The notes: a model not told the origin generated them from the letters alone. Counted from the first letter of the stretch, positions 1-32,099 are shown. The stretch: DNA of 43,990 nucleotides from Piedraia hortae CBS 480.64 (GCA_010093745.1 MU006043.1:1-43990); one strand, 5' to 3'. Made by a program: numbers and translations.

Positions 1-532
1 CATACAAATCTCTACGGAAAACTAGTTGACGCGTGAAGTCGAGAGCCGAGCGACGGTTACTAATAATGCGCGTAATATACCGCATATTCACAACAATATC
101 AGTCTCAATTCCGGTCACGTGAGATCCTACACCACCGAGACCATTACCCTTTTGTTCTTCACGCGTTGTTCTAGTCTTTTTGGCAGCATATCGTAGCGCA
201 CACCGCATAGCTCCGTCCCTTGCGCCCTCCGGCCTCTCGGGTTTGACATTCTCACTCGTTTTGACAGGCCAGACTGAGTCAGACCCAATTGCCGAACATT
301 TGAATGGGAAGAAATCAACAATGGGCAAACGAACGAACAACCCCCAGGAAGCAGCAGAGGCATGGGGGCAAAGACTGCCGAGAGATAATATTGGCAAGAA
401 GAAGGGGCGAACTTTCCGTTGTGCTTAGACGATGAAGATCGGGCTTTCCCACAAGGAACCCATTCGCATGCGCACAACGGGCAAGCGGGGAAAGGGCCAC
501 ACCATGGGAAATGAGACTGCGGTTGATTTTGT

Positions 533-599
533 ATCATTCAACGCCGAGGCGGTGTCGTCCCGAAGGACTAACCGCGACCTCCCGAGGGGCAAGGGGGCG
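533..599. repeat. 67-bp dispersed direct repeat, partner at 9614-9680; fragment of the unknown minus-strand gene at ~9.3-11.3 kb
   Basis: atcattcaacgccgaggcggtgtcgtcccgaaggactaaccgcgacctcccgaggggcaagggggcg aligns without gaps to 9614-9680 at 58/67 identities; minus strand reads APLPLGRSRLVLRDDTASALND vs APMSLGRPRLVPRDDTASSLYD. Confidence 0.9.
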
Positions 600-614
600 C
601 GCTATATAAGCTAG

Positions 615-3600
615 GAAAACTATTTACGGCCTTGTGACCTACCTAACCAGCAAATCTTTTCCCGAGGGGTTTTCGAAGAATTTGGGCCGTGGCACTTCTC
701 CACATAGCGGGACCTGTCCATGGCGTTGTGTTGTCATTGCTCCTGTGTCACACCAGCTCCCCGCGAGGGCAAAGCTCGTGGTAAAGCCCAGTATTGTCCA
801 GGAACGTGGCGAAGTGCTGAGGTTTCAGTACCAGTTCAGCGAGGTATTTGCACCTGGCGTTGTAATCCAGCATGCGTCTTGGGCCCTCCCAAAACCATGG
901 CCATAGCCTCCATCGTCGTTGGAAGAGCAAGCAGTGGACAAGATGGTCCGGGGCTTTTGGCTTTCCGCAACTGCAGTCCATGGTCGCGTCTTGATGACCA
1001 AAGCGGAGGTGTTACTTCGCAGAGTCGCCGTGTCCGGTCCATAGCGCCAACAAGCGTTGTAGAACCGGTCTTGGCAAGGACAACAATTCGTGCTCTCGCA
1101 TGACGAACGGCAAAGTCCATCGCTTGTACTTGTCTGAGAGCTTGGCTTTGAGCCTATTCCAGTTCTCTCTGACGACGTCGGCGAAGATCTTTATAGCTTT
1201 GGCTTTGATGCCCTGCAGCTGTCGGACCGACTTCCGCGTCGCCCCCAGCACGGCAGCCGATCTTGGCCGTCGCGTTGGCCAGTTCATTTCTTTAGATGCC
1301 CGTATGGCCGGGACACCGCTTCACCCTCACGTCTCGCCCCTTGGCGGCTTCGTGGAAGGCACGAAACGCCCAGTGCGAGCAGATGGAGGCATCTGCTCGT
1401 AGACACCATATGACTGCGGTGTTGTCGGTACAGAGTCAGGTGCGATTTTGTTGGCCTCTTTCCTGCTGGTATTCGACGGCCGCTTCGAGACCTCGCCAGG
1501 CGCCGACTGCCTCAACGTCAAGGGCAACGGAGTATGGATCTACACTGGCTGCCCCGGATGCGACGCAGTGTCGGCCGAGGAAGACGGCGTAGCCGTATCA
1601 CCTTTACCCACCTGAGAGCCGTCGCTGTAGACGACCATGTCATCGCGTGGCAGACTGTTGACCCACAAGACGAAGTCTTTGTCTGCTTCTTCTTTCGTTT
1701 CGCCCCCTCTCGGATCAACTCGGGACCCAGGGGTGTGCTGTGGGTCGACCAGAGGAGGCCTATCGATCTCCTCTAAAACATTACCAGCGCGCAAGAGCCT
1801 TGTACAGGTTTTCTCGGCGCGGTCGCTAGAAGGGTCCAGACGGCCTAACCTGCGTGCCAATGGGTGCTTGGCGTCTACTTTGCGAATTTGCGTGGCGTGC
1901 CGTAACCGAGCCTGCTCCAAAGCCATCAGTCCGGTTGGTATGCCGGCCTCCATGAACAAAACACGGTTTGGCGTTGTCCTCCACGCGGGCAAGGCCACTC
2001 TCGCCGCGGCTGTCGGTACCTTGTGGATGCGATGGGTGTGCCAGCCAACGCGCGCACTCATGACGCTCCTGCCTCTGGCTGCAGGTTTCTTTGGCCGCTC
2101 TGCCAGACTTCAACGCAGTAAAGGGCCATATATGCATGGCGCATGTAAAAATGACTTTCCGCAGGGAAGCAGCAGGCGGACCATACGTTACTCCCGCAAG
2201 GCTCCGCATATGGGTCGTCAGCTTTTGGGCCTTGGCGCATCTATCGGAGACATGTCTGCGAAAGGTAAGCTTTCGGTTCATGTACACTCCTAGCCACTTC
2301 ACTGCCGGCTAAGGGCCTTCCGTGGTTGGCTGGATCGTGAATGTGTCATCCGCTACTAGGGCGGGGGGAATCGTAGCCTCTACCGCGCGAGAAGTGCATC
2401 AGTTCGACCTTTTCCGGCGCGAAATGGACTTTGTTTGCCCTACCCCAATTGAGAATCGAATGTACGTCGTCTGCTAGAGCGTTGGTGGACTCCTCCAATG
2501 TCCTACCCACCCTGTACACGCATATATCATCAGTGTAGCCAAACCGTAGCTGTGTTCTGACCCAGCAGTTGAGCAAGGCAAAGCAGGTACAGCACCGGAG
2601 ATAGCGAGCTGCCCTGAGGCGTGCCGCAGGATACTGAGGCCAGCTGCGTAGTCTGTTCTTCCATCCTGACCTGCACGCGGCGATCGGCGAGGAATGATGC
2701 AACAAATCGTAGGAACTCGATGGGCCATCCCTGTCCTCGCATCCGCTATAATAGTCTTCGAGGCAGTAGCGCATCAAAGACGGACGGCCGCTGCTGCCAC
2801 CTCTCTGGCAACCACTCGCTCAATACCTTTGCCTAAGCAAGAGAGGAGAGCGATGGGTCTCCACGACCTAGGAGACGACCGGTCTTTCTTTCCCGGTCTG
2901 GGGATCATGACGACATCAGCCGTCTTCCAGTGCGTCGGGATGTACGCTAGGTCTAGGCACGCGTTGGTGACAGCAAAGAGCCAGTGCTTTACATGGTCCT
3001 AGCATGCCCGCAAAAGCCTGACGGTGATGCCGTCTATTCCCAGTGCAGTGCTTTTCGATCCAATTGTCGCTTTTTCCACTTCCTCTAGGCTCACTATGGA
3101 GGACCAGGTGAACTGCTGGTATCCCTCTTCGTCAGACCATCCTTGGAGCGGGTCCGAGCTAACGTCGTCGGCGGCTGGGAATCTCTCCAGGAACTGCGTC
3201 CTGAGTGCCACGGCCTTTTCAAGTGTATCGTCAATTTGGTGTCCATGAATGAGCAATGGAGGCGCTTTTAGCTTGGGCTTCCATCGGTACCACGCAATTA
3301 TCTTGTACAGGGCGCGGTCGGAGTCAATCCCATCTATCAGCTTACTCCAAAACTCTCTCTTAGCGTCGCGGACGTCAGTGCAGAAGAGGCGATACACTTC
3401 GCAGTTCGCCGGTCTCTGGCCTTGCGACCGTGAGCATGCTCGCTTCCATGCTTGATGTTCGCGATGGCAGACGTCTGTCCACCAAGGGGCATTCCTGGCG
3501 GTTTCTCGAGACTGCGGTTGAGAACTGGGAGCGGGCTGCTATTGCCCGTTTTCGATCGACTATCACGTTCAGGCGATAGCAGGTCAAGCAGATCCTGAAG

Positions 3601-3720
3601 GAACATAATCAAGATTTTTCGGGGAAGGGGGAGTGTCGTCGACCCAGTGACGAGGCCGAAAGCCTCCAGCAACTGGACAGCCACCATTACCAATTCATCG
3701 CGGTCGACTCCACCCTCGCT
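615..3720 (-). mobile_element. Decayed, 5'-truncated Tad1-like LINE ORF2 (RT, RNase H, C-terminal CCHC); boundaries approximate
   Basis: Frameshifted pieces read WW..REFWSKLIDG, SWRPIALLSCLGKGIERVVA, GTPQGSSLSPVLY, FGYTDDI (YADD box), KWLGVYMNRKLTF, RNase H VVYSDGS and zinc knuckle CSCGKPKAPDHLVHC. No endonuclease or ORF1 seen; many stops and frameshifts. Confidence 0.92.
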
Positions 3721-3974
3721 TATCGACCTTATGACCTCAGTGTAGAAACCGCATGAATTTCGATGCGATTTCAAAGTGTAGGGATGAGGAATCACCAAAT
3801 TTCAAGAGCTTGATACCGAACCCTGTGGGTCTTTGTCCTTGAACCCCACGCGGAGTACAGGCAATACGAAATAATCGAACGCAAACTCTCTCTTTCATTT
3901 AAAATGGTTGTATCCAGCCTTTCACTCATTTTCAATTCCCTCTTCCTTCCCTTTAACAGACAAGGCAACTGCGA

Positions 3975-4742
3975 TCAACACCATCCTATCTTTGCTTCGG
4001 GAAAAGAAGCAGGGAGTGACCACGGGAATGTTATGAAGAGACGCGAGATTACTCTCAAGATGTGGGCAGATAGTTTTCGATCAACTGACCATCCATTCAC
4101 CGTCTGACTCGCAATGAGTGCTACGCCGCACACCTGCGTTTCCAAGTGCGGCTTTCGATCCATGGTTTCTCCACAGAGGCTGCCAGGAAAAGGTATCGCG
4201 ACAGGAGTATCTTTTTTTTATCATTTGATGCCACGAACTCGTCGATGCTCATCGATGATGAGCGCAGCTCTGGGCGGTCCTTCAAGGCGTGCGCCATATG
4301 TAGGTCGAGGATCTTTAATGTGTGGCTTTTCTCGTTTAATGCCAAGGTGGGTCGTCACGGACCGGCTTCTTGTGAACCTTTTCAGTATCTCCACCAACGC
4401 CTTATCTGCGAGGGAAAGCTCGCAATGTTTCCAATAGGTACATGGAGAATAGTAACCATATTCTCCCACCTGCAATCCCCAAGAATCATAATGGCAAGAC
4501 GCTGTTTTGATATCTGCGCTCATAATTGTCGATTTATTTGGATGATAGTTCATGCACCGTCTTCCCTGCCAACGCATCCATTTCCTTTTCCAGGCATTCA
4601 CCCATCTCACGCCGTTCGTCTTCTATCTCCACCACTAACGAATTCGTGACTTGTCAATTCGCTTCTCGAGGTCTTCTCCTGCCACTACTAGCACACGTCG
4701 GATCGTTTCGCGCACTGCACGTTTCAGCCCTTCATTTATCAT
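3975..4742 (-). pseudogene. Degraded ORF of unknown family, head-to-head with the PolB relic
   Basis: Protein-like pieces in alternating frames from ATG 4742 (MINEGLKRAVRETIRR.../VVEIEDERREMGECLEKEMDALAG.../LALNEKSHTLKILDLHM...); no recognisable motif. Confidence 0.35.
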
Positions 4743-4859
4743 TTTGATGCTGTGTGTGCGGAGAAGAAAAAGATGTGGGCAGTTGGCAAGATCCTGAAGT
4801 GTCGGGGAGAAATGTGCACATTCATCGCAGCTCCCAGGGTCAACCATCCGGCCTTAACC

Positions 4860-6383
4860 ATGTTCACCCTCTTCTACACAGGCAGAAAAGTGACCATGCT
4901 CTTTTACGGCCTTGATCCGGATGTGCAAGAACACGTCCACGAGTACACGGTACCGGCATTTTCCGCTGGGTCATCGTCGGACGCTAAAGATTGTTGCGCG
5001 ATCTGTCAGCCATCATCAACAGAATGTCTATCCTCCCGGCAAGATATCTCTTCCTCCCTTGGTAGTCCAGTACCTTTCCGGGCCCGTGCCAGAATCAGGG
5101 GCACAGCCGCTATCGCCTAATGGCGAGCGAACAGTGCCCTGGTGCTCTGGGGCTTTTGGACGGCCGCAGGTGCAGTTAAGAACTGCGTCTTTGTACAGTC
5201 TACAAGACCATCTCCGTACACTTCAGCGATGGAAAAGATCCAGAGACACCTCGAAGCGGGTGCCACGATAAGGTGGGTCGGGTATCATGGTGTACGCACA
5301 GTCTGGGTTCATCTCTCGTATCCGAATGCATTCGTGAAAGAAATAGTAGAGCTCAGGGAAGACTACACAGATCCATCATTCGTACAGATTCGATTGTCTG
5401 CAGCAGCAAATCCTGAGACTACAACTGGCACCATATGGAACTCGGGAAGCAGGCTAGAACTTTTGTGGCTCGCATCCATCATAGGGCTAAATCCGGATGC
5501 CGGTGCCAGCGCTGGTGTAGGGCGTGCATTTCATGGAGACGTGGGTTGCACTATGGGATATGACATCGAACAGGACAGATCGCGGATCCCGTTGAGTTCA
5601 TTTTTGACAGCAAGCGAGACTATCACTTGCATAGCAACTTACTGCAGCTGTGGAGAATTAAGGCTCTTCAGCATCATAGATGGGGTCCAATTCGATTACA
5701 TCCTCTGTAGGAGTTCGTGTGAGTCTGTATCTAAGTTCATAGAGTATGCAAGTCCCATGCACCACAATGGCTGGTAGGATACAACAACTTCAGATACGAC
5801 AATGTTAGGCTCGCTTTCCATGCTGACCCCAAGTACGATTCTATCTACATCCCAATGAGGGTAGGATCCGGGTCGTCACTGTCACATGCATTCTATATCG
5901 ACATAGAGGGTGTATACAATGTAGATATTCTTGTCCATCTTGACAAGACAAGGAGACATGCATACATGAATATGTCACTGGCCACGCTTGTGAGGCATCA
6001 CAATGTAGGGGAGAAGATGGACTTTGACACAGCGGACTTGCAGGACTTGGAGAAGCTTTTCGAATACAACATCCACGACTCTATGATTACAATGAAACTA
6101 GCACATGCGTCCAATGCGATGGACGAAATCACCTCTCTCGCTGTAGTTGCATGCGCCCCAATAATAGACTGTGTCCGCTTCGTCAGTGGAACTCTCGCAG
6201 CATGCTCTATAGTATCCTATTGTCTTGAGCATAGGATTTCAATGGATTGGTCACCGTGTCTCACAGCCATTGAGTACAGAGGAGCCGAAGTTCTGAAACC
6301 CATCATTGGACTCCACGAAGATGTAGTGTCATGCGACTTCTCGTCTATGTATCCCACTGTACTTATTGGAGCCAATATATCTA
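4860..6383 (+). pseudogene. Family B DNA polymerase (RNA-primed, delta/virus-like), intronless, truncated after motif A
   Basis: ATG 4860; in-frame TAA 5118-5120; single frameshift near 5755. Exo I GYDIEQD (DIE at 5562-5570), Exo II WLVGYNNFRYD (5768-5800), SLATLVRHHNVGEKMD, Exo III YNIHDS (6065-6082), YRGAEVLKPIIGLHEDVVSC and motif A DFSSMYP (6335-6355), then GANIS. Motifs B and C absent. Confidence 0.93.
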
Positions 6384-7277
6384 TAGTACATGTACCGCAT
6401 AGACCACATTCTCTAGGAAACAATAGCGCTTCCTAAATGCATCTTCGGGGACACCGATGACATTCCTGAATGAGACGAGTTCGACGCCCTTTTGTCCAGC
6501 ACTATAGATCGATGGATGAGGTGTATGGTGCCTGGGCCGCTCTTCAGCTAGAGATGACAATTCAACTGCACATACAGTCTTGCCACGAGGGTATGATGCT
6601 TGTCCACCATTGTGCTTGAACACACGGTATTGCTTTTTCCCTCCCAGCTTGGGCCAAAAACAAATTGCACCATACGCTGATATAGCAGAGTGCTGATAGC
6701 TCATTTTCAGATCCATGATAGATGCCATAGGGTCGCTAGAGGAAACAGATATCCGCACTGTGATGGGATCATTCAATCCATTCATGTGTCCTCGCATGTA
6801 TACCACCCGCCGATTTTCGTCAGAACGGACATCTTCGATCAGCTCTAGCATCGTGATTTGTCTCATTGTGCCGACAAAGCTATCTGGGTCGCATTCGGTA
6901 CTACAGCAATAAAAATCCCAGGGTGCAGATGTGATTCTCACAATGGGGTAGAAATAGGCAGTGGCCTGATATCCTCCAAGTACAGCCCCATGCTCGACCA
7001 TTGCTCGCAATATAGCTGTGGCATCTGCTCTGAGTGGAGCAAAGTGTGCAAGTGGATCCTCAACAGAGTCACGGGCAGCCTTGCGTAGTGCAGAATCATG
7101 CGCACATATGCGATTGATGTACTCTATGGCTTCCTTGCGGTAGTCGTCCGCGAAGTCTCTGTGGCCTATTCTAAGCGCCAATAGGCGCTGGAGAATTAGC
7201 CTGTCTGGGGCTAGCTCATCGACCTCTCGGATCAAAAACGAGAGCCCGAGTATTGCTGATACTGTCCCTGCACCCAA
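6381..7277 (-). CDS. Intronless ORF (298 codons, probably truncated at both ends) with a Pol-beta-type nucleotidyltransferase-like signature
   Basis: Uninterrupted frame; MVEHGAVLGGYQATAYFYP...SAPWDFYC resembles the hG[GS]...DxD NTase motif with the first Asp replaced. No ATG start; the stop lies at the junction with the PolB relic. Confidence 0.5.
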   Translation of the reverse strand: MGAGTVSAILGLSFLIREVDELAPDRLILQRLLALRIGHRDFADDYRKEAIEYINRICAHDSALRKAARDSVEDPLAHFAPLRADATAILRAMVEHGAVLGGYQATAYFYPIVRITSAPWDFYCCSTECDPDSFVGTMRQITMLELIEDVRSDENRRVVYMRGHMNGLNDPITVRISVSSSDPMASIMDLKMSYQHSAISAYGAICFWPKLGGKKQYRVFKHNGGQASYPRGKTVCAVELSSLAEERPRHHTPHPSIYSAGQKGVELVSFRNVIGVPEDAFRKRYCFLENVVYAVHVL

Positions 7278-7589
7278 TCAATGCCGAACTGGTTTGCCAG
7301 CTCAGCATGCGGTGACGGGATGACGGTGGTTGGGTGACAACAGACCCGCCGAGTCAGGCGGCTCTCGGTGGGAAGTCCGATTGGCGAAAGCTTCCAGAAC
7401 GACATTATCCCTTCTGTCTTCACCGTCAGTGTTGCTACTTTTTTCTTCTCGAGACGGGCCTGAGGCAAGCAGCGCACTTCTAGGTCCGCCCACACCTTGA
7501 TGTCTTGGCTACTTTGCTGGCGCGTATCGTTCTCCAACGCAACCCCACGCTCTCGCACCTCTTCCTCTTGCTGTGCCAGTCGCGCGCAT

Positions 7590-8144
7590 GGTTCTCCTAT
7601 TTGAACTACGTCAGTATTACTGAGGTCGTCGACATTCGTCTTCGTGAGCCTCAAGGACACAGTAGTCAACGTTGACAATGATTCCCTTCTTGGTGGCACG
7701 GAATGCATTGCTCAAGTCACGCGGCTCGAAGTTATCGTCACGCGTGATGATGCCGCAGCTGTCCGTGCAGTTGTTCAGTGTCTTCCACCACTCGGTGTCG
7801 GTGCTGTTCAGCCTATCATCATCTACCTGGACGGCCGCGTTCTCGATGTGTGTCCCGATAAACTTGGGCATGCCAACGTACATATAATCGACGCCGTAGT
7901 TCTGGCCCCTGTTGTACGGCACCGCTACATTGGCTTGCTTAAGGACCATACTCTCAAAATTGTTGAGCTTGAAGGACACTGGGGCGCGCCAGTACCGGTT
8001 GGTTGGATTCTTCTTCTTGGTAAACTCGCTCGTGGTCTCGCTGATTGTGCCGATGACTACCTCGACCTTACCGAACGTTTCCTTCGTCCAGTTATTGACC
8101 GTTTCGAACGGATTCCTTTGAACTTTCGGTTTGGCGTCCGTCAT
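7590..8144 (-). pseudogene. Small intronless beta-rich orphan protein, candidate OB-fold ssDNA-binding protein; frameshift near 7665
   Basis: ATG 8144 in AACATG context; MTDAKPKVQRNPF...RYWRAPVSFKL...DYMYVGMPKF...WWKTLNN...KGIIVNVD continues in another frame as TVSLRLTKT. The function is inference only. Confidence 0.45.
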
Positions 8145-8229
8145 GTTGCGAGATAGTCCTGGGAGCCCAACTTTCCCTGTCATGGACCGTAGTGATATCT
8201 GCAACTGCGAGAGCGTTGCGTTCTTTTAA

Positions 8230-8733
8230 TTATGCACGACGGATTGGTCTAAGGCCACGCAGGTAATTGACACCGTCAACGTTGCGAACCGCGTACGGGG
8301 ATATCAATCTCGCCTTTGATCAAATTGATTCTACAGGTAGCTTCAGCATGCATGATAGTATGAGGAGGACTTCGTACCCATCGTGGCAATTCACTTCATC
8401 TCGAGTCTCGGCTATGAGCTCGACGGCCTCGTTCATCTTGGAATTACAAAACGTTAGCAACAACGTGTAGGGCCTAACCGGCATCGAGTCATAGCGAAAC
8501 CGGGTGTACATACACGCACACGCAAAGTCCAGCCTAGCGTGGCTGCCTTCTGGTGGAGCCGCAGGTGGCACAGTCAATGCGTCGACGTTCATATGTATGG
8601 CCACGACGCAACTCTTCCACGAACCCCTAATAAGCACGTTCGTCGCGGCGGGACTGTGCAGCGTCTGTTATAATCTGCTTAAGATGAATGTGTCGATCAT
8701 CTTTGGCCCGCGGATATCACTGGGTTCTTTCAT
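8230..8733 (-). pseudogene. Degraded intronless orphan ORF (~167 codons, two internal stops)
   Basis: One frame from ATG 8733 through a TAA near 8668 and a TGA at 8320-8322 to TAA 8230-8232 (...RPYTLLLTFCNSKMNEAVELIAETRDEV...*SKARLISPYAVRNVDGVNYLRGLRPIRRA*). Confidence 0.45.
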
Positions 8734-8785
8734 CTCTGGCTGTAGTCATTGAGACTGATGGTCAAAGCGGGCGAGCATTTCGTCT

Positions 8786-9118
8786 TTGTTGCGCAAATGG
8801 CGGGACGAGGCACCGAGCTGGGCCAATGAAGATCGCCATGATAATGTTGGCTTTCGCCTTGCGAATTGGTTATCGGGAGTCCTTGCCAGTGTCAATGTTT
8901 GCTGGATGAAAGACGTCGGAGCGGAAGATGTCAGCTATATCCCCGCAATGTATGATCAATACAAGCAGGCAATTGATCGGAAAAAGATAGACTAGACACA
9001 TGAACCAATCACCCTTGATTAGCCGGTTGTCTTCGATGCCTGTATGCTCGAAATACCATTTGATTCTCACATCCCAATCTTTAGTGACTTTATGAAAGGT
9101 GTGGAAAGCCTAGTGTGA
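8786..9118 (+). pseudogene. Degraded orphan ORF fragment (two internal TAG stops)
   Basis: LRKWRDEAPSWANEDRHDNVGFRLANWLSG...YIPAMYDQYKQAIDRKKID*THEPITLD*PVVFDACMLEIPFDSHIPIFSDFMKGVESLV* in one frame. Confidence 0.35.
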
Positions 9119-9322
9119 GCAGGCTGACGCATTGCCTGTATGCACTAGATCACCGCTGTGTTGCCCGTGCAGGTTCAGATGTGATTCCTTTGGCTTCCTT
9201 TCTGCTGATAGTCGACGGCTGCTTTGAGTACCCCCTCCAGACGTCAATTACCTGCGAAAGATGAGGGAACAGAAAATTTCACGACGTGGGCCATTGGGAT
9301 TGGCTGGTGCGCGCGATGATGA

Positions 9323-11290
9323 TCACTTGCATAGCCCATTGGGCAGCCTGCGTTGTCGCTCCTCCTCCGAGAACCTTACCTTCAACAGGTCAATGGGCTC
9401 GCCGGGATCGTCTAGAAGGACGTTATTGTCGCTGGGCGTTTTATGTCTTTTGACCTTCTCGTCGTGCTTGTCCTGCATCTGATTGCGGGTGATCTTGTCC
9501 ACGAGGGCAGGCCATCCAGCCCAGTCCTTCTCCCCCGACTGGTCGACATGGTTGCGCACGGCTCGCAGGATCTTGTCGACGAACAAGCGGCAGAACAGCT
9601 TTTGTTTGTTTTCATCATACAACGACGAGGCGGTGTCGTCCCGAGGGACTAACCGCGGCCTCCCAAGCGACATAGGGGCGACGGCTGAAGGATTCGATCT
9701 TCGAGGCCTCATCCAGCTCGCCAGTTGTAGCCAGGACTTCGAACTCCGCCTTCCAATTGACGTACGACCGGTTGCCTTTTTTGAGAGGTTTCGGCTTGAT
9801 CGTGGCTAGCCGAGCGCCATTAATCTGTAGATATACTGTGAGTCGGGGTTTCCCACAGAGGCTGAAGTATTTTCGCAGGGCGGCAGAATGCGCTACCATC
9901 AACACGTGCAAGTAAAGTCGATTCACTTCTTGAATTTTCGAGCGGTTGTCTTAACAACTGGACTACTGGAAATTGGACGAGGTGACGTCGGATGGGAGTT
10001 TGGAAATCCACAAAAACTTCTTCCAGTGCTTGTCAACCATGTCCCTAAATATCCTGCCGCTTGTGGTCTTGGTAACGGCTTCAATAACGTTCAGATCGAG
10101 AGAACCTGCTGTTAAAGAAATCTCGTTTGCTTGTCTGTCCAACACGTACTTTGAGACGTAGAGCTCTGTGCTTATGACACGACGGAAGGACGGATGGTCT
10201 TGTGTGCCGCCGTTGGCGCTTTTTGGGTCTCCATTCTTGAAAGTTCCAAACCTCTCGAGGTGTTTCCTCTTCCCACATCAGTCCAAGTCTGACGACGCAC
10301 TTGTTAAGCCATAAGTGAAAGTCAGGTGCGTGGTCAGGCTTGGACTGGTGGGATTATCAATCTGCTTCCGATGGTCTGGAGCTTCACATACAAGTATGTG
10401 TGTATGTCCAGGATCCACTTCTCCCGTCTTTCCATTGTTTGCGAAGCAGCGACAGAGACATTTGTAGGCTGTCGATCTAGCCTTGGCTGAGAGCCCCCAG
10501 ATGTTGCATGGGGGTCGATGTATCAGAAAACAATCGATCTTCCGCGCCCCCTTCGCACACGAGCATTGTTGGCGTTGAGGTGCTGAGCCATGTTGGATTG
10601 GAATCAACGGAAGATTACCAAACTTGTGTCAGCTGTTGGAAGTCGTTACCGATGAATGGGCCACCTTCCTCTCCATATTTGTGGGTTTCAGCAATGTTGT
10701 CTGGCGCCAGACCGTCTTGGTTCTTTGGGACCCAGATTCCAGTACAGTCCGTCGGAGTCCACTCTGTTGATCTTGTCTCATAAGATCAAATGACTTCATG
10801 ACTTTCTGCTAAACGATCCATTCGAAATACTTCTCCTGAATCTCAGTCCCTGGCCTCATGGCTTTTATATGCCGTGGACGCATGACTGGTTTCCTGCGTG
10901 ACTTGTGTGTTGCCACCGTCCGCCTGGGATTCAACGAAGTTTCCCTCATCAATTACCATGCCAAATTCATCGTCGGACGTTGCTTCGTCCACCTCTGCTC
11001 GCATGAGCGAAGGTGCGTCATATCTGGGCGTACCACGCGTAGGCGTCTGGTAGCCTTCGACTTGTGAATAGCCCCACGGCCTAAGGCTGTAGCAGCCCCC
11101 ATTCCAAAGCGCAGGGTGTCGCAATCGATAAGATCTGAGCTTGTTGTGGATCACTGTGGCCACAAATTCCACCCCAGCATCATCATCTTTGAGTCCTATC
11201 CTCTGGAGACGCCTCTTCGTATTCGTGGATGGAAATATCTTCGATGGCGCTACCGTGATTGGGTAGCTGAGGCAGATTATCCTGATCGAT
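9323..11290 (-). pseudogene. Long degraded gene of unknown, multi-copy family
   Basis: Consecutive protein-like minus-strand pieces (10843-11172, 9963-10145, 9615-9926, 9323-9712) broken by stops and frameshifts; part of it is duplicated at 533-599. Confidence 0.45.
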
Positions 11291-11354
11291 TATGATGTCT
11301 CAGTAGCCATCGTTGTGCGCCTTGACATATCGTAGCCATTGATCGACGTGACCA

Positions 11355-13225
11355 CGCGGAACTTGCAGGAAACCCCGGAAAGAATGCACTGAACCAGTTG
11401 ACCGTGCCAAGGAACTGCTGGGGCTGCTGTTTAGTGGTTGGTTTGGGCCAAGCAGTGAAGGCGTAATTGGCAAGATCGGGGGCGCGATGAAGACATGAGC
11501 CACGAAGTGCTCGAGGTAGCGCACCCTTTGTTGGAAGAAGTGGGACTTGGCTGTTAAAATTTCTATTTTAGCCTTGTGGAGGATATGGTTAACGTGGTCG
11601 ACATGGCGTTGATGTTCCTCGCGAGTGTCCAAGTGGATGAGGATATCATCAATGTAGGCGAAAGCGTATTTTTTAGCAGGCTCCAGAAGGTTGTCGATAA
11701 ATCGCTGGAATGTGGCTGGCCCGTTACGTATGCCGAAGGACATTACGTTATACGCGTAAGTTCCTTCCGAACATTTAAACGCTCTTTTGGAGCGTGATGT
11801 CGGGGAAAGAGAAACGTGGTGGAAGGCATGACGTATGTCAATGAGGAGAACATTTCGTGAAGTGGCTGTTCTCTGCAGCAAGTCTGCCAAGTTCGGGATG
11901 GCATAGGTGTCTGGCGTGGTGACTTCGTTGAGTGCCCTATGATCAACGCACATTCGAAGCGTTTGGTCTCTTTTCGGGACAAATAATATATTAGCCGCTC
12001 TCGGCCTTGGACGGCTTAATCCAGCCGCGTTTGATGCCCTCGTCCAGCGTGCTTTGAAGGGAGTCTTTTTCAGTGGCCAAAGATGCGCGGGGATTGCGTC
12101 CATTCTTGAAAGGGCCGGTCATGGCAATATGGCAAGTCCCAGAGACTGCCTCCTCCTTGATATACGGAAGACCAAGGATCAGGGACTCGGTCAGGGCCTT
12201 GACGACATAGCAGAGCACGGGTCGAGAGCTAATCTCGATCATGACGCGTTCGGCGTGTTTGGCGATTGAAATACCCGTGGACCCGGACAAATTGACCGTT
12301 GACGGCAGGCGGTCTGGTGGGGCAATTCTTTCACGGATGCAATTGTCTGCCGCACCCGTATCGATTAGCGCCTGATACGTGGTGATGTTGAGGGTCACTA
12401 GCGTGCGTTCAGCTGCTGTTTCGTGTTCACCAGCAATGGCGATCCGATTGATGGGTTTTCCCTCCGTGGAGATTTTTGCGTAGCAATCCTTTGCGACATG
12501 TCCAGTCCACCCGCAGCGATGGCACTTGTCGGAGGTGACCTTGCGCTTCCGCCCACGGCGAGTGGGCCGGTATTGGGATCCAGTGGCACCCTTAGCTAAG
12601 TCTTGAAGAGACTCGATGCGTTTAGCATTGTCCTTGAGTAAGTCGTAAGTCGAAGTGTCGCAGTGGATTAATGCAAGTTTAAGTGCAGGCTTGAGGGCTT
12701 GATAGAATACCGCGTGGCGTGCTTGGACGGGCCAGTTAAACTGGCCCGCAAGAGAACCCATCTCGGCAATGAGGTTGGGCACCGTGGACGAGTGCCGGAG
12801 GCGGGAGATGCGAAGCTCCGCCTGGGCTCTGCGCACTTCTTCACTCTCGCCAAATATTTCCAGAAGAGCAGCCTCCAGGGCGCTCCACTTCTGGAAAAAG
12901 ACGGGTTGAATAGGACCCGTCCGAACGAACCAGTCCTGGGCATGCCCGCGCAGCTGATGAGCCACGTAGGCACACTTAATAGCCTGATCCTGGAGGTCAC
13001 TATCAAGTACTTTCTTGAGCCTCACGTGCATAAGAAAGGCAGGCAAGACCTGGGGTCGCCCATAGAACGTGATGCCGCCATTCGTGGCAACCTCGAAGCT
13101 GATTGGCTTTGCATCTATTATTTCCAGTTCTTCCTGAAGCTCATCGTCGTCGTCGTCATTCGAATACTACTCGTCTGATAGCTGTGTACGCAGCCAGAAG
13201 CCGGCTTCCAGCCGTTCGTGGGGAA
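11355..13225 (-). mobile_element. Ty3/gypsy-type retroelement relic, copy 1 (gag, protease, RT)
   Basis: Gag with knuckle CHRCGWTGHVAKDC, aspartic protease ALIDTGA, RT LFVPKRDQTLRMCVDHRALN...MSFGIRNGPATFQR...YIDDILI; frameshift near 12000. No RNase H, integrase or LTR recognised. Confidence 0.93.
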
Positions 13226-16200
13226 GGCAGAATTGTGCGTCCAAATAATGGCCTTCATTGAGCCCGCTTGCTAGACATGAGATGGTCCACGATGTCCTTT
13301 ACAAGATGTGGTATAAGAACCATTGTGGCCTGATCGGAGTCGACAAGATCAGAAGCCGACAGCTTAAATCACGGTACCAGATTTCTCGCACCATGACTAG
13401 GATAAGCTGGCGCCGATCGGTACTGGCGTGCATGGTATTACCAATGCGAAGCTGGGGTTTTGCCTGGCGTTCCACAATCGTCATTAATCAGTGCCATTAT
13501 TGTCATGTTTCCGTGCTCGTACTGTTTGACAGCCCCATGAAGCCTTGGACCAGCAGCGTTCTAAACAGCCTCGTGACATGGCAAAGGCAAAAACAACTTG
13601 AGCTTTTTGCTGATGCCGTCCAGGCCCTGTATCTCCTCCCAGCTCCTCGTTACCTCCTCTAAAGTGTGTTAAGAAGGTACTGACCACATATCACTATCCT
13701 TGATGTGAGTGGCCTGAAAAAGTTTCGAGTACTTCGCAGTCGCGCACCACAAGTGCAGCAACTCCCGAGCCTGAGAATCATCGGCCACGCCAAGCATCTG
13801 GGACCTGATGGCATAGGAAAACAGGAGCTGTTGTTTATTTGACATTTGGACACCCATCTCTTTATTGCATCAACATCCCAGGACTTGGACGCCCCCAATT
13901 TTAGAAGAGAGCAGTGCTGTTGACTCTCTTGCCTTTGGGTATGACTATCGTCAGCGCATTGATCTCCGCCGACATCCCAACACGTAATCCGGACTAATTC
14001 TTAGCTGCCTCAATTCTTCCCACGCACCAAGGAAAAGCTGATAACGGCTGTAGACCGCTGTGATATGGCAACGGCTTCATGTTCGATCACCAAGATGCGC
14101 GTCGGTGCTTATGTAAGGGTCGCTGAAAAAGGAGACTTGACACCTTTAGTGTCGCAAGATACCGCGACTTGTCAAACGCCCAGGCCTTTCAGCGCTTCGT
14201 TAGCTAACCCTGAAGCTTTATTGCGGCGGCATTCTTTCCATGTTACTTCTGGATTGTGACTTGCGCGAACAAGCGGTAAAAGTTGAAGGCCTTTGAAAAC
14301 ACCAGACAGCAGAGGTGGTGTGCGAGCTTGGTATAGGAACGGGCCGCTCCACATGGGTTGTGCCATTGCCATGTGACATTTTGACAGGCTCCACAGAGAT
14401 GGATGGATAAGTTTGATCAAATATTGGTTTTTACTGCGAAACTTTGCAGAATGCGTCTGAACCAGACAACCCATCCACGTCTAATTCCACGCACAAAGCA
14501 TCCAGTCGCAAAGAAAGTTGATGAAATGTCCTCAAAAAATCGAAGGATGTCATATGCCAGCCGGCTTTGAGATCGGTCGGGTCACGGTGACTTTGCGGCG
14601 TACCAGTGGTCACCGAGACCCTAACACTCGGTTTTACACTTGTACCTCCACGTAATCTGGTTCAACGCAATAGCACAGCGACAACGTTCTGCACCTGGCA
14701 GAAGGCACCGTTGCCACCAACGTAGGAGCTCATAACGGCCTATACATCCTCATACAATATGATGAGTTCCAAAGCTATTCCTCAGGACGTCTCTTGCCAC
14801 TGTGGGCATATGACACCTCAATAATCCCTCATTGAACTCCGACAGAATCAACATTGCCCAACAAAAGTCAACTGTCATGAACCTGTCGCGCTCTTCAAGT
14901 TTCAACAATCCTTTTGCCATCGCTAAGTCCCATCCATCTTTGCTGCACTTTCCTCCGCTATCTACAAGCTTGCTAGCAATAATGTTCAAGCAAATCCACC
15001 GCTTTGTGACAGAGCACAAGAGAGACGAATATCGGGGATTGGTTCAGCGCCTGGCGGGTTTCACGGCTAGCCGTGACAACGCGATCTTGCACACGATGAT
15101 GGAGATGACGGCGAATTACTCGAGAAGGCCATATGTGAAAACATGTGTATTGTTTTAACATTTGAGACTCTCGAATCGTGGTAAACACTTTTTTCGTCCG
15201 TTTCATTCACTTTGGGACCCGGGTCAGAAGTGCAAGGGCTTGGTCAGAATTTCTAACAAAGGGGAATGAGTCTTATAACAGCGAACGAAAAACATAAAGC
15301 ACGAGCCGTTTTATGACGGCGCATGGATGATGTCCAGTCGCGGGAAGATCTACTCTCTGACGTTCCCCGGCGGCCTACATACTTTGCTGGGATCGAAGCT
15401 GAGGCGAAAATATTCTGGCCGAAGCTATTGAAAGCAGCTCATATTACTGTGCGCCTACAAACGGACGCGATGTGAGCGAGGAAATAACGATCAACCGAGA
15501 ATTTAAATTTGCATTTCTTTTAAGGTCAAACACGAGCTCATCGATGTGAAAAGGCAACTTCTTGCAAATCTATCCGTAGGAAGAAATTCCCACCCCTTGC
15601 GAAATTTCTTTCCACGGAAATGTCTTTATAAGTAGTATAATGCTCAATCAATCTCAAAAAACAAGGGCTCATCGATACCCTCAAAGAAGCCAAACAGAAG
15701 AGCAAGAGCAGCGGCTCAGGCTTCAAAGCTGAGGTACGGACGACCGCCTTGAAGGCCCTCCATGACGTGATTGTAAATAGGCTGGCAACTTGCACGATGC
15801 AGATTACTCGATCTGGAAGACGCTGAAGGATAGCTCAGGCCGGGGCATAGACAAGAAGGACTATTTAACGACAGAAGTCATGGAGGCCTACTTCCAACAC
15901 ACTTCCCGGGCTAGAGAGTTCAGCAAGGCCTCTCTGGAGTTCGCCGAAGACCTGGCGACTCTGTGTTAGGATAACCTAGCCGGCAATAGACCCTGTCCTG
16001 CTTTCGGCGGCTAGCAACGGCGAGGCTGAGGACGAAGCCGTTGCTTGTCGCTGCTCACCTCCCAAGCGGCAAAGAAGAGGCGTTGAGGCCTCGGTCACAA
16101 GGCATACAACATCCGTCCGTGGTCCACACTACATACCACGCGGCCATCATGGGAAGCAGCCCGGCTAAAGGTGAGGATACGCCGTCACCAGATGCAGCGC

Positions 16201-22000: not shown

Positions 22001-23066
22001 TCCCCTTTCCAGAAGGCTCCCAGAAGGCACTGTATAACCTTTGCAAAAGCATTTACCAAGCTTTCACCACATTATACAGCCGAAGTGGGGGGCTTGCGAA
22101 ATAGAGAGAGACATTTCCATAAACCTGGTATTTTCATGACATTGAATTACCTAACATGACTGTGGTTCATGACTTTTGCAGCCAATCGGCTGCAATGCCT
22201 GGTGAGTTGGTGGTGAGATGTCGCCAAAATACATAAATTTGACGACATCTCGGACCGGCTTGTAGTCGAACTGCCAAATTACCCCATTGAGACTAGCGCG
22301 GTGCATGAAGCGAAGACCCGGTCGAGAACAAGGAAAAAGTGGAGACCAAAAGCCATGGTAATCCTCCCCGATCCTGCCCTGCATCTCAAGTTGTCCCGAC
22401 AACCTCTAGAGATTGAGTGAGTTTGTGGCGGCTGTTCCTAATGCTGACAAACTTCTTACGTGGTGGAGACGTGTCGTACCTGAAATATTCTCTAGCAAAG
22501 CCAATATTCAGCCAATCGGCGTAACGCCAGTAGACCCCGCTCTAAAAGTGTGCTCTGGCTCCGAGTATCTGAGGCTGTCAGCACTCGAGGTTTTTTTTTG
22601 ACAATTCAAATTTCCAGAGTTCCAAAACGTTGACACTGAAATCTGACCAAGTCTATTCGTATAAAAGTTCCTCCAAGAAGAAGCTCACCCAGTCGACTTC
22701 GCAATCCCTCCACTTCACGTGCAGTGAAACCGGTGGCTTACAACAAGGCTGATAATCCGGGAGCTCCCGCGTTCCCCGCGACCCGAAGCCTGCGCTAACG
22801 TCACCCGACTTGCGGGGCGAACTTGGTCTGCTCGAGTCTGCGAGCGTTCTCACGCCACGCATATTCACTTTTTGTTGGAGCCCCGTGTTAGTTAGGTTAG
22901 AAGTCCCAAATCCCACGCTGCAGACTGCCCGACGTGTTGCATCTTTGGGGGGGTGGGAGGCCTAATACTTGGGGCCGTCGCCCACGAGCCGTTGGAACTG
23001 CCATGCAATAAAGACCGCAGTGGGCTGGCTAGGTGGAGTTGCGCAGGCAACCAGATCTCGTCCCCG

Positions 23067-25187
23067 ATGGATTTCATGCTGGCCGATCGTCTGCGACGCG
23101 GCGGTGATCCCACGCTTTACAATGCCGAGGAAAATGACATGGGCGACGAGACGCAGTCGCCAATATACCTGCAGCCGTCTATGATACCGGGGATGCAATC
23201 TTATATCAACCCGGGGGCGCAAGTGTATGTCGACCCCGAGGTGCAGACTTATGTAGACCCAGAGGTGCAGTCTTATATTCAGCCGAAGGCACAGTCTCAC
23301 ATCACGCCGGAGGTAGAGCCTTCGCCCGAGATGGGGCCCTATGCCAAGCCAGAGATGGACCTCCCACTGCGGTCGCCATTTAACAAGCAAGGGTTCGCAT
23401 TTGGTCCTCCGGGGGACAGCTCCAGCCCAGAGCCATTCGAACAGTCGACCACTATACCGCTGACAGAGTCCATGTACGCCTTCGCCGGGAATGTTGGGAG
23501 CAGCCCGATGCGGTCTGCATTCGACCCGACGCCGGCGGACTTCAACGTGCAGATGAACCTCGCAGACGAGCGAACAGCCAGTACAACCATCAATCCAGTC
23601 ATGTTTCAAGTTGGCCCCTCACGGCGCCAATCGTGCGCACCGTCTCGCGAACAAACGCCCCCTCTCCAATCCACAAATTCTCCTCAGACTCTCCACTACC
23701 CTCATGTCCAATCGCTGGAGCAGCAACGGCTTCCCTCGCGCCTCCACATCTGGACTAATACGAACAAATCCCGCGTAGAAACACAGATAAATGTGCTTTT
23801 GACCTTGGAAAATCCACCGCCTGGTATTGAGTGGCTGCATCTGCCTCTGCACACTATTGCAAAGTCTAAACTTTTGGCGAGATCTCACTATGAAAGTAGC
23901 AAGACTATCCAGCTGCAAACCAACTTGGTGTGTACATCTGCTATGCGCAATCCCGATCTGCGTGCAAAGGCACTGAAACGGGCAGCGGAGCAAAGCAACG
24001 AGTATGTCCAGTGGAGATCACACTGTTCGAAGCAACATAGCGCGCTAGCTCAGCTAGAAAACAGGGTCAAGGAGCCGATGAAGAATGTTCCTGAGGAGGA
24101 CAAACCGGCTAATGGAGGTGAGGTTCGGATCTGTGCCAACTGCCTGCAGCGAGAGAGAAAACGCGCAGGGCGGAAGAAGGCGCGGTGCGAAGAAGAGCAA
24201 CAGCACTGGGAGCAGTTTGAGTCTGAGCGAGTGGTAGTGTTCAACTCAAACGAGTATCAGACGTTCCGAAAGCCAGGTGTCTTTGAAAAGGAGAGCAGCT
24301 CGAGTCGTCCGCACTCCAGCGACAGCAACTACACTCCTCCGGATGGTGCTCTGCAGGTGTGCCTGGCTATGCGAATCGCTTGTTACTGCCGACATCAGAG
24401 CGAAAAGGAAGGGTTTCAGGTCATTCTCACCGTCAAAGACCGCATGGGGAACATTGTTGCACAGCAATTGACTCCTTCCATTCTCATCACTGACGACCAC
24501 AAGACCAACCCAACCAACGCCGTGACGGTTTCGGCGGAGATCGCACCAAACTATGGTGTGCGGATGCCCAGCCAGTCCATGCACAACTTGCAACAAGCGG
24601 TAGCGCCAGGCATTCATCCATTTTCTTCATCCCGCAGCGCCGGAGACTTGCAAGCTCTGTCATGGGCTGCTACACCACAATCGATTCCACCCCAATTCGC
24701 TAGCCAACCAGTCTCTGCAAGGGCCACCCCTCCGCCCCAAAGTCGCCCCGGCTCACCCATGGGTATCGACGGACCCAACAAGAGAAGGCGGTCATGTTCT
24801 TCCCATCGTCCGATGTTGCAAAGCCTCGACATGACACGAGCGATGCAGATGCAGGCATTCCCTTTTGCTGCGAACATCCCCACCTACTCCATGGCAGGTG
24901 ACAGCGGCAGGGCTCCTCAACGGTTTTCGAATGGCGGCATAGGCTTGGGAAGGGTAGCAGGAGGCATCGCCACAATGCCTACCACTCCGCTATACTATCA
25001 TCCACCAACGTTCGTCCCCCAACAGATCAACCACCACATGAGCAACAGTGCTGGATCTCCAATGGTCGATATCTTTCCCAGTTTGACTAATGGCGAGCAC
25101 ATGATGCCATTTGCAAACCCGCTTGGACAATGGTAAGGATGTCTTCCTCCTTTTGTGGTTTATCCGCTAACCATCCGTTCCTGCAGA
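23067..25187 (+). CDS. SPT23/MGA2-like transcription factor lacking the C-terminal IPT, ankyrin and transmembrane parts (~688 aa; start codon uncertain)
   Basis: KSRVETQI...LHLPLHTIAKSKLL...ICANCLQRERKRAGRKK...MRIACYCRHQSEKEGFQVI...ILITDDHK is the Spt23/Mga2 N-terminal DNA-binding region. A probable intron at 25133-25186 (GTAAGG..GCTAAC..CAG) splits the stop codon TG|A. Confidence 0.85.
23202..23321 (+). repeat. Five imperfect 24-bp coding tandem repeats
   Basis: YINPGAQV YVDPEVQT YVDPEVQS YIQPKAQS HITPEVEP; e.g. tatgtcgaccccgaggtgcagact / tatgtagacccagaggtgcagtct. Confidence 0.85.
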
Positions 25188-27082: not shown

Positions 27083-30000
27083 TTAAATAACTTTGGCCTT
27101 TAACCTACCGCTTTCGTAGTATGTCTCACATGTCGTTCCCTTGTCCTGTTCGGCCCGAATATGGACCCTAGGTAGATGAAGCCCACCCCCTTTCAGTGGC
27201 ACCAGCATCAACGGCAGAGTAGTCGAGCCTTGAATGTGAACCCGAGTACGTCCCCCTATAAGCCAAGTATCGGCTTCTGCTCCGATATCGACAATGTACT
27301 CCCTTGTGTTTCCCGAGCCCTCGCCGAACACGCTTCGAGAGCTCCAGTCGTTGGTGTGCGTGATTTTCAATTTTGCCTCAACCGGCTCGCCCAGTTTTAA
27401 CACATGTCCTTTGTCAATCTCAAGAGCTGCGTGGAATACTGCATCGACTGTTGGGACATCCACAGGAATCCTTAACAATCGAGCCGAGTGCTTGGCCGTT
27501 GCACTGTGCAAGTCAACTGGCAGGTTTTCGTGGTCGGTATGCCAATTTTCAAGCCAGTCTTGCAGTCCGAGTCGGACGTCCGTAGGCAAAGCATTTATCA
27601 CGTCGCCCCAGCCGAATTCGGCAAAATTAGGAAACGCCATCTCGTGCCGGAACATGACGGTTTCCATGTCGACCTGAATGACCGTCTTGCTCCGCTCAAT
27701 TACAAATGGCACTAATAAACGAGATAGGCCTTTGTACCTTGAGTCTTCCAGACGTTTGCTGAAAAGCTGCCGCATTTCTTCCACAAGAAGCTCCTGTGCG
27801 GAGAGGTAGTGGATGCTTAGAATTAGCGCAGCATCTTGTCGACGCACTGAGCTTTCAGGCACCCGTGTGATTTGATACATTAGCTTTGCGGGAAGATGCT
27901 CAATGGTCATCATGTCCTCTGCCGGTGGGGGAGCTCGTACAGTATATGCCGGTGATGAGCTGAGAGAAGTCTTCAAAATTGTCAAGGGCTGCTTGTCGGT
28001 AGATCGAATAGTGAAGTTGGAGAAGAGTCTGTCCATGTGGAAGATGTCGTTAACATCGACGTCGAGAGGCAGCCCATGTCGTAGTGTGGGCGAGCTCAAG
28101 AACCGAAAACTCCCTTTTGAGGTCTCGTAGCTGATCTGAACGCGAATGGAAATCTTGTGCACGTTCTGCTCGACTGTATAAGGCATGATTACGGCGGCCT
28201 TGTGACCAGCCTCCATACCAGCCAGGGCAAAGCCGAGAGTCTTTCCATTCGCACGCTCTATTCCGACCAGTTCAATGTCGGCAAGATGTAGTCGTAAGCC
28301 GGCACTCGTTGGCCGCAGATTCACCACAATGCCATGTACATCATTCCGACCGCTTGATAGTGTCAAGTGCATCTTTCGTACTCGGCCCACTTGCAAATCT
28401 CTTGGTAAACTTAGATTGGCGTCAAAAGCTGTCTCCGGAGGATAAACTAGTACTCGGGGTTGTTCGTGTCCCACGAAAAATTCTGACGGTGAATCGGGAA
28501 CGTCAATGTCATTGACCTTCAAAACTGGCTCGCGTCGCTGAGATTCATGCAAAAAGCGCAGTTTCTTTGCAATCAGTGTAATTGGGCCGATATCAAAAGC
28601 CCCAAGCGCCACGGTTCGTGCACGTAGCTGTACTTGATTGAGGCCCTTTCTGATAATGGTTGGGGCAGAGCAGAGATCGATCGTTTGACTGCTGTCGTCC
28701 ACGCTCACCAGCAGTGCCTTTATGGTCATTTCGACTTCGTCCACCAAAACATGCCGAAACCGCAAATTCAAAGTGAATCCATCTTCTTCGCAATGGTGGC
28801 ACTCTATCCCCAGGCAAATACTTGTAAAAAATTGCTCCGCCGGCCTCATCAAATCTTGTGGAAGATCCTCAGAGAGCGAGATGACTTCGTCAAGAAGACC
28901 AGTCACATCAACGTCACCCTTGGTGGACTCCCTAGCCATTAACTTGCCACAGACTTCAGCCAATAGATCTAGGGAACTCTTGATGTAATCCTCGATGCGA
29001 TCAAGTCTCTTCAAACAAGCTCCGTATATCGACAACAGCTCAGTGTGTACAGCACTCCAGGCGCCTGTGTTATTGCTTGGAAGAAGATGTTGAAGGTACT
29101 CTTCCGCCGCAGCTGCATCGCCTTGTTGTAAACGAAGCATCGCAAGGTCACGTAGGATTGGCTCGACATATTTGCTCTGTGTGGCTAGGGCATAGTACCG
29201 CATTGCCTGATCGCAAAGATCCATATATGTGTCCTGAAAGCTTGACTCAGACTCCAGTAGAGAGAGCAGCTCGGGAGAGATATGTTCGGACATGTCAGCC
29301 TCGACGTTCTTCTTCCCAAGGCGCAAATTCCTCAGATGGTGAAAGGCTGCCCAGCCAGCATACCACCCTTGCTGAGCAGCCACTGTTTCAATCGCCCTAC
29401 GCTGCATCATCACGACCTCGGCGCGGTATGTGGCCAGCTCGGGGAGACCGGGAAATCCCGCGCCTTTGGGTGTTGTAAAGATCTCGCCTCTCTTTGCGTC
29501 CTTGCTGCCAGCAGTCGAAGGTGGACTGGTCAAATCAACACTAGGCGGTTTTTGGAGCTCTGGTTTGCTCGTAAATAGGCTGCTGGATCGTTGGGGATAA
29601 GGATTAGCACCCATTCCGAATGTGAACGTGTCCCCTTTAGGCGTAAGCGTTCCGTTTGTTCTGGTTTCATCATCACCATCCTGTATCGTTTCCAGGATTG
29701 GAGCAGCTGTCTCCATCAAAACCTGTTCGGTGATGGAATATATCCACGAAGATACCAGCGCATCAATATCCGCTTTGCTGCGTTTCGCTGGCGAACGAGC
29801 AAGGTCTTGTCGCAGCATTCGCGCGCCATTGTGAATGAAGCTGGAGCCGCGCCAGCAGACTTCAGATGTGAGTACCAAGTCTTCACCCCCGTCCTCTCTC
29901 TCGCCACGTAGCCGCTGAGCGTTTGCCAACCGCAGAATGATCGACTTTTGGCGCAAGAAGAGGTAGCCGAAGAAGTCAAAGATGGAGATGCTGCTTCGCA

Positions 30001-31735: not shown

Positions 31736-32099
31736 AGCTTGAGCGGTGTATAGCGCAATGTACTCTTCAACACGATAGATACCTATACGGGCAAGTTGCT
31801 CTCAAGAGCTGTCTAATGTCTCATATGACTTGGCTGGGGTTTGAGGCAGTTGCCATCGTGCTTCAATCTTAAGCCAATACTTGACGCTACCTTCAACGCA
31901 ATATACGTCTGTCTCGTTCTCCGAGTTTTAATGCCCTTGGTTCGCTCGACTGGACAGTTATCCGCACCTGATTGCTGTGGTCCGATACAGGTTTCCAGTA
32001 TGGCCTTGACGCTGATAATAGTCCTCTGGAAAACTACAGTGACTCCTTAATGATGGATGCAGATTATTATGGATCTAATTACTGGGCAGTTGTTTACAT

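Follow-up and report, generated by a model that had tools for sequence, protein, structure and literature searches.

Three groups of described polymerases and elements are among the closest to the locus reported here. Insertions of fundsalphaviruses, in which broken Pithovirus-like family B DNA polymerases (PolBs) are found together with D5 and RNA polymerase genes, have been identified in non-Dikarya fungi (Gong, Zhang and Han 2020, PMC7017919). The cytoplasmic virus-like elements (VLEs) of yeasts, the zymocin-type killer and helper plasmids, are small and gene-dense and possess their own replication genes and a reduced RNA polymerase of the multisubunit type; they are 9-13 kb in length and use a terminal-protein-primed PolB (pPolB) (PMC13348850). 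Finally, archaeal PolBs, such as those of the Thermococcales (KOD, 9N and Tgo) and the crenarchaeal PolB1/B3, are enzymes of 700-800 aa without C-terminal zinc fingers. Here, we analyzed a DNA stretch of 43,990 nucleotides from Piedraia hortae CBS 480.64 (GCA_010093745.1 MU006043.1:1-43990), called the window throughout, which carries a truncated PolB gene on its plus strand (5229-6388). This gene is very probably the front 55% of the PolB gene of a small virus- or plasmid-like double-stranded DNA (dsDNA) element of filamentous ascomycetes, preserved as a dead relic in the nuclear genome.

The identification of the gene relies on several independent searches. The piece 5735-6436 matches Pfam PF00136 (30.3 bits for a cut-off of 23, E 2.5e-7) as well as solved PolB structures in a PDB sequence search, and its best match among 1.84 billion representative proteins reaches E 7.8e-87 with 61% identity. 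This PolB match is well past chance. Using tblastn with two relatives, P0001 and P0160, the start codon was located at 5229 (MEKIQ...), where residue 1 of both proteins aligns. A first frame (5229-5750, codons 1 to ~174) covers the N-terminal domain and shares 64% identity with residues 1-174 of P0160 and 51% with residues 1-178 of P0001. It contains YDIE (Exo I, 5559-5570) and YCSCG (5640-5654). A second frame (5750-6388, codons ~175-386), which shares 79% identity with P0160, contains GYNNFRYDN (Exo II, 5777-5803), SLATL (5975-5989), GEKMD (6008-6022), YNIHD (Exo III, 6065-6079), YRGAEVLKPIIG (the YxGA(E)V..P..G element, 6275-6310) and DFSSMYP (motif A, 6335-6355). P0160 is the closest relative of the window copy, with 75% identity.

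Two breaks are directly visible in this copy. Both frames of the P0160 alignment join at 5748-5751, between ...EYA and KSH..., where one base is absent with respect to the relatives; this 1-nt loss is the single break within 5229-6388, and both parts are devoid of in-frame stop codons. Homology to P0160 then ends abruptly after ANISI at ~6388, which corresponds to codon 386 out of ~701. Up to this codon, the relic has retained all 20 invariant columns of the family and 16 of the 17 near-invariant ones, while past it none of the 14 invariant columns is present, motif B (KxxxNSxYG), motif C (YGDTDS) and KxY having been lost. Further PolB pieces were sought across the whole window by tblastn with P0001 and P0160, and none was found. 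Because motif B and YGDTDS are lost, the relic cannot polymerize DNA and is left without any function, and the window copy should be considered, from its sequence, as a member of the family by descent and not as a possible enzyme. As such it is an ordinary pseudogene, whose interest lies in what it points to.

An earlier interpretation, made from the DNA alone (hereafter the sequence-only reading), had listed the motifs above together with DCCAIC, and every one of them could be located, DCCAIC at 4989-5006 on the plus strand. Its frameshift near 5755 is real in the assembly and corresponds to the 1-nt loss at ~5748-5751. By contrast, its gene span, which began at 4860, has to be shortened by 369 bases: the stretch 4860-5228 of the plus strand (MFTLFY..., DCCAIC and a TAA at 5118-5120) is not PolB. 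Since the relatives align only from 5229 onward and none of the 23 full-length members compared (set A1) has a long N-terminal extension, DCCAIC and the 5118 stop lie outside of the gene, and this stop, being upstream, is not a defect of the gene in need of repair. Likewise, the proposal of an unfamiliar Cys-rich N-terminus survives only in part, as DCCAIC is excluded from the gene and YCSCG belongs to it but is a conserved motif of the family, with C139, C141 and G142 near-invariant in A1. Within the upstream stretch, extra short contigs with 3-9 differences from run X1 (a DNA run which may be the source of the assembly) align to 5037-5137, indicating that this segment is repetitive and also occurs at another place in the genome.

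The family to which the relic belongs is sizeable, with 353 representatives at E<=1e-3 and 82 at E<=1e-10 among the 1.84 billion representative proteins. Its members are compact (~700 aa), and in A1 Exo I-III and motifs A, B and C are invariant, i.e., a complete proofreading PolB is contained in ~700 residues. Pfam scans of 15 relatives mostly returned PF00136 alone. None of them has a zinc-finger C-terminal domain (zf-C4pol/zf-DNA_Pol), and PF03104 was not matched at E<=1e-3 in 12 of the 15, the three matches consisting of two weak ones and a strong one in the most distant row. In a collection of 5.8 billion proteins, ~40 close and ~40 more distant members are followed, among the matches listed, by archaeal PolBs only, and no cellular eukaryotic polymerase occurs among the 120 matches listed. 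Identity to any PolB outside of the family does not exceed ~33%. In a scan of 185,579 prokaryotic genomes, the best 80 loci were archaeal PolBs at 23-33% identity, without any family member, and the family is therefore not prokaryotic. No close relative of P0001 was found in IMG/VR, where the family profile retrieved only generic PolBs (20-35% identity).

Profile and structural comparisons also lead to archaeal enzymes. Against solved structures, the family profile scores highest with the Thermococcales PolB (238 bits), followed by those of Pyrobaculum (218), Sulfolobus B1 (191) and yeast Pol delta (184), and then by yeast Pol alpha (177), E. coli Pol II (170) and the herpesvirus enzyme (164). 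The AlphaFold model of P0001, an intact relative and not the window fragment, has a pLDDT of 89.7, displays the PolB fold with its N-terminal, exonuclease, palm, fingers and thumb domains, and superposes from end to end on archaeal PolBs; its best Foldseek matches in the PDB are the Tgo, KOD and 9N polymerases (E ~1e-30, TM 0.58-0.74). In BFVD, the matches to the same model are PolBs from a wide range of unrelated viruses, only 11-20% identical, and no close group stands out. By sequence and by fold, the family is thus nearest to archaeal PolBs, with which it also shares the order of Exo I-III and motifs A, B and C. It differs from them by its shorter N-terminal region, by the low identity (23-33%) and by its occurrence on eukaryote-associated, virus-like contigs, with fungi as hosts. 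Judged from their motifs and domain content, the intact relatives are likely compact proofreading enzymes that would extend a nucleic-acid primer and not a terminal protein.

These comparisons bear on two simple origins of the gene. The first one is a decayed paralogue of the host Pol delta, zeta or alpha. The family indeed has the general motifs of RNA-primed PolBs in common with these enzymes (Exo I-III, a YxGG/A-like element and DxxSLYPS), and the Pol delta catalytic subunit, with its primer-extending PolB motifs, is picked up by the family profile at 184 bits. However, yeast Pol delta and alpha both score below the archaeal enzymes, the CysA/CysB C-terminal domain of Pol delta is missing from the relatives, as is PF03104 from most of them, and the contigs of the relatives are dense in open reading frames (ORFs), among which are genes for a helicase and RNA polymerase; fungal orthology is not what this family shows. 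It is on domain content, profile scores, match lists and gene context, and not on the trees described below, that a host origin can be excluded, its probability being negligible.

The second one is a PolB of the protein-primed kind, derived from a Polinton/Maverick, from a linear plasmid of mitochondria or from a cytoplasmic killer plasmid like those of yeasts. Fungi carry such plasmids, VLE-derived clusters occur in Pezizomycotina nuclear genomes (PMC13348850), and a reduced RNA polymerase is common to yeast VLEs and to the element related to the relic. However, PF03175 is not matched by the window piece nor by 14 of the 15 relatives (the remaining one giving a partial match), the pPolB of phi29 is the most distant row of the IQ-TREE tree described below, and the P0001 model superposes on archaeal PolBs across its full span. 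In addition, the D5-like helicase and the RNase H of the related element, whose 20-37 kb contigs also set it apart from yeast VLEs, fit RNA-primed replication, and this origin is barely conceivable. The sequence-only reading had argued for a foreign lineage, distinct from any recent copy of fungal Pol delta, alpha or zeta and from Polinton or plasmid pPolBs, which agrees with the profile scores, the domain content and the virus-like contigs. It had further described the enzyme as RNA-primed and delta-like: a non-protein-primed family B enzyme is indeed what we found, but the likeness to Pol delta specifically is not borne out, since sequence, profile and fold are all nearest to archaeal PolBs.

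The deep placement of the family was investigated with three trees, built with FastTree (103 rows), with IQ-TREE under LG+C20+F+G4 (a quick tree of 62 rows x 678 columns) and under LG+G4 (35 rows). Reference rows were labeled by their neighboring genes (herpesvirus, baculovirus, iridovirus-like and capsid-linked loci from nucleocytoplasmic large DNA viruses, or NCLDVs), by record names (GVMAG and archaea) or by annotation (phi29 pPolB, T4-like gp43 and halovirus); phi29 alone represents pPolBs, and eukaryotic Pol alpha, delta, epsilon and zeta, piPolBs and casposon PolBs are outside of this sampling. The window copy is sister to P0160 in all three trees (support of 100 with FastTree and 99 in both others). 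The FastTree and IQ-TREE trees both recover the family as one clade with a support of 100 and a long stem (1.34 in the latter). In the IQ-TREE tree, it groups with archaeal, T4-like and halovirus PolBs (support of 95), and phi29 sits outside all other rows on a branch of 4.4 substitutions. The clade takes in a sister group, some proteins of which are fused to an Rpb2-like part. In two proteins of this sister clade, P0036 (1489 aa) and P0053 (1678 aa), the PolB is followed by the Rpb2 domain-6 region, which may be a genuine fusion or the product of merging two neighboring genes in one gene call.

These trees are central for a third origin, namely an endogenous giant-virus (Nucleocytoviricota) fragment comparable to the fundsalphavirus insertions, the 20-37 kb contigs of the family being pieces or strongly reduced descendants of such genomes. 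Like those insertions, the relic is a frameshifted PolB in fungal nuclear DNA which adjoins a D5-type helicase, with RNA polymerase genes in the related element and retrotransposons nearby, and a D5-like helicase together with multisubunit RNA polymerase subunits is the very combination found around fundsalphavirus PolBs (PMC7017919). Moreover, when the family was forced to join the herpesvirus and giant-virus cluster, the cost was a log-likelihood difference of 2.13, and the approximately unbiased (AU) test did not reject this join (p-AU 0.164). However, the family stands apart from the herpes-plus-giant-virus cluster in both the FastTree and IQ-TREE trees: the GVMAG, iridovirus-like and major capsid protein-linked PolBs cluster together (98% support), and the family is a clade of its own, with a long stem, outside of that cluster; in addition, among the matches listed, archaeal PolBs precede any named or GVMAG PolB. 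Its proteins of ~700 aa compare with ORFs of 948-1,390 aa extracted for the giant-virus and GVMAG rows, and no contig of the family exceeds 57 kb among 39 matches listed. Neither an NCLDV capsid, nor an A32 ATPase, nor VLTF3 was matched by Pfam or PHROGs in the 22 kb of the related locus L082 presented below. In addition, the fundsalphavirus hosts of PMC7017919 are all non-Dikarya and their PolBs are Pithovirus-like, whereas the family enzyme is half the size and its named hosts are Pezizomycotina. A giant-virus origin is improbable. This being said, the join with archaeal PolBs is not robust, its support ranging from 63% in the 35-row LG+G4 tree to 95%. Because of this 63% support and of the AU value, the deep position of the family may be either archaeal-like or giant-virus/herpes-like.

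What the polymerase of such a small virus- or plasmid-like element would serve is suggested by L082, a locus of 22 kb within a 27.6-kb contig whose PolB is 29% identical to P0001. Its ORFs are tightly packed on both strands, a packing from which we read the locus as intron-free. L082 encodes a D5-like superfamily 3 helicase (a DUF5906/AAA match, with PHROG DNA primase families at E 6e-12, and no match in a PDB sequence search), an RNase H (E 1e-26) and an 806-aa protein whose match to Rpb2/RPC2 is confined to the catalytic domains at the C-terminus (Pfam E 4e-17, PDB E 1e-11). Another protein, of 653 aa, gives a weak match to Rpb1 domain 2 (E 0.022, and only E 0.05 in the PDB sequence search), and NADAR, macro-like and kinase-like genes are also present. 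Among the longest contigs of the family members (39 matches listed), 23 measure 20-37 kb, 15 are shorter and one is of 56,855 bp; the contigs of P0001 and P0002, another close relative, are of 31,413 and 26,552 bp. The intact enzyme thus probably replicates an element of 20-37 kb that brings along a helicase, an RNase H and a reduced RNA polymerase, a lifestyle which we deduce from gene content and contig sizes. Separately, a 568-aa ORF of L082 (15152-16858, minus strand) weakly resembles a uracil-DNA-glycosylase over its first ~270 residues (Atlas score of 0.88, structural TM of 0.65 normalized by the match); this lead was not used as evidence.

The window itself contains further genes of this element, all on the minus strand and immediately beyond the polymerase. 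Next to it, a 298-codon open frame (6384-7277), from which the source gene call P0316 takes 206 aa starting at 7001, encodes a protein of unknown function. It has homologues in P0317 and P0335 (311 aa, 51% identity), in Podosphaera aphanis (P0318, 44%) and in P0319 (38%), and tblastn with the L082 ORF 6204-7322 matches the window at 7109-6897 (E 2e-6), inside this frame. P0335 lies on a 56,855-bp contig, and the contig of P0160, the closest PolB, is also of 56,855 bp. The AlphaFold model of this ORF family (pLDDT 51.7) was too poor for fold searching. A second gene of unknown function, a 202-codon open frame at 7617-8225, corresponds to L082 3832-4614 (minus strand), with 38% identity over 195 aa between window positions 8174 and 7620 (E 4e-37, tblastn); its placement and orientation with respect to the helicase are those seen in L082. 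The helicase follows as a C-terminal remnant of ~122 codons (8242-8607): residues 329-450 of the D5-like superfamily 3 helicase of L082 (4681-6015, minus strand) match window 8607-8242 with 39% identity (E 1e-22, tblastn). A 47-nt intron-like stretch with GT..AG ends lies inside this remnant (8331-8377, minus strand). A relaxed tblastn of the L082 ORFs against window 1-14000 gave no credible match beyond these four regions, and no flanking direct or inverted repeats marking an insertion were found.

The arrangement of these genes suggests how the copy was inactivated. Compared with its homologues, the 298-codon frame is short of ~14 residues at its end, and the PolB gene ends at ~6388, so that one breakpoint at 6384-6390 cuts two genes tail to tail, the polymerase after codon 386 and its minus-strand neighbor before its last ~14 codons. 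The insertion is a multigene one, spanning at least 5229-8607 and comprising the 5' half of the PolB gene, two genes of unknown function and the tail of the D5-like helicase. Its polymerase was inactivated 1) by the loss of one base near 5750 and 2) by a rearrangement, most simply a deletion of ~1 kb between convergent genes, which removed the fingers, the remaining palm and the thumb.

A fourth explanation, an assembly chimera or a contamination in which a free episome was wrongly joined to fungal DNA, has to be weighed at this point, as free-standing contigs of the family are common and the Logan contigs of both runs examined break at 5469-5477, inside the polymerase. However, the window copy is broken and rearranged, and free forms are not. 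Contigs of run X1 agree with the window over 4800-8800, one of them extending from 5469 to past 8800 and another one from the upstream sequence into 5477. In run X2, which stems from a different sample of this organism and from a separate study, a contig of 2,921 nt (depth of 748) is exact over 6340-8330 and 8378-8800 and covers the 6388 junction without differences, which constitutes an independent sighting. The window also carries host genes and retrotransposons, and a chimera is very unlikely. As to the common end of the contigs at 5469-5477, another copy may share sequence up to there.

The same X2 contig provides a hint of expression. Although run X2 is not on record as RNA and its status is a guess, it looks like RNA because the contig skips 47 nt with GT..AG ends on the minus strand, which is the intron-like stretch of the helicase remnant. 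The three minus-strand relic genes thus seem to be contained in abundant, host-spliced transcripts, while the depth over the PolB part 5470-6340 is 0-4 in this run. The X2 contig includes an open frame of 188 aa (8183-7617) and one of 206 aa (7001-6384).

The surrounding window is fungal nuclear DNA. It contains an SPT23/MGA2-type gene (22896-25136) and a TRAPPC10/TRS130 gene (27083-31033), as well as Ty3/gypsy remains with gag, protease and reverse transcriptase (11300-13166, minus strand) located ~2.7 kb past the relic. Additional remains of Ty3/gypsy type, with gag, RNase H and integrase-like parts, occur at 32047-33524 (minus strand), and an open frame at 2999-3538 (minus strand) ends in GIDGITVRLL..., which resembles the start of a non-long-terminal-repeat reverse transcriptase domain (no Pfam match at E 0.1). 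As to the hosts of the polymerase family, all six named PolB proteins are from Pezizomycotina (Hypoxylon sp., Ophidiomyces ophidiicola, Aspergillus insuetus, A. sclerotioniger, A. alliaceus and Fusarium napiforme). Two shortened members lie on large fungal scaffolds, P0246 in A. sclerotioniger (209 kb) and P0254 in A. alliaceus (154 kb), and chromosomal relics of the element seem to recur in Pezizomycotina. The gene model of P0254 is fused to tetratricopeptide (TPR) repeats.

Several points weigh against a relic of a small replicating element as proposed here. The frameshift is seen in the assembly and in run X1 only, which is perhaps the window's own source, the second run being without coverage at this position. 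Beyond the relic, the element is known from one related locus, L082, whose proteins are 29-38% identical, and it may be linear or circular, free or integrated, a virus or a plasmid; the gene order around its polymerase is unlike that of the window, which is why the single deletion is something we infer. No capsid or packaging gene was recognized by Pfam or PHROG in the 22 kb of L082, where many ORFs are without assignment. The contig sizes are listed lengths and not proven complete genomes, and the host range is derived from the six named PolB proteins and one named homologue of a neighboring gene, most relatives coming from metagenomes or Logan.

With these points in mind, we tentatively propose, at somewhat less than an even chance, that the relic derives from small dsDNA replicons of filamentous ascomycetes (~20-37 kb, probably cytoplasmic) that form a lineage not yet described, viruses or capsid-less plasmids, equipped with a compact, proofreading, archaeal-like PolB, a D5-like helicase, an RNase H and a reduced multisubunit RNA polymerase. 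No description of the polymerase family or of the element was found in the full-text literature, a search to which subscription journals and supplements were external and which is not a proof of absence. If this proposal is correct, these would be the first dsDNA virus-like elements of Dikarya having their own non-protein-primed replication apparatus, and they would occur in a free form as well as inserted, and expressed, in the chromosomes of their hosts. The polymerase clade also adds a deep branch, a new one, to the material on which PolB evolution can be studied. Why Dikarya escape infection by giant viruses has recently been raised as a question (Myers et al. 2026, PMC13533422). The present family, with its widespread contigs of 20-37 kb carrying polymerase, helicase and RNA polymerase genes, has named members from Pezizomycotina only and has left relics in fungal chromosomes; it bears on this giant-virus gap, and the Piedraia hortae window provides a physical link to the host.

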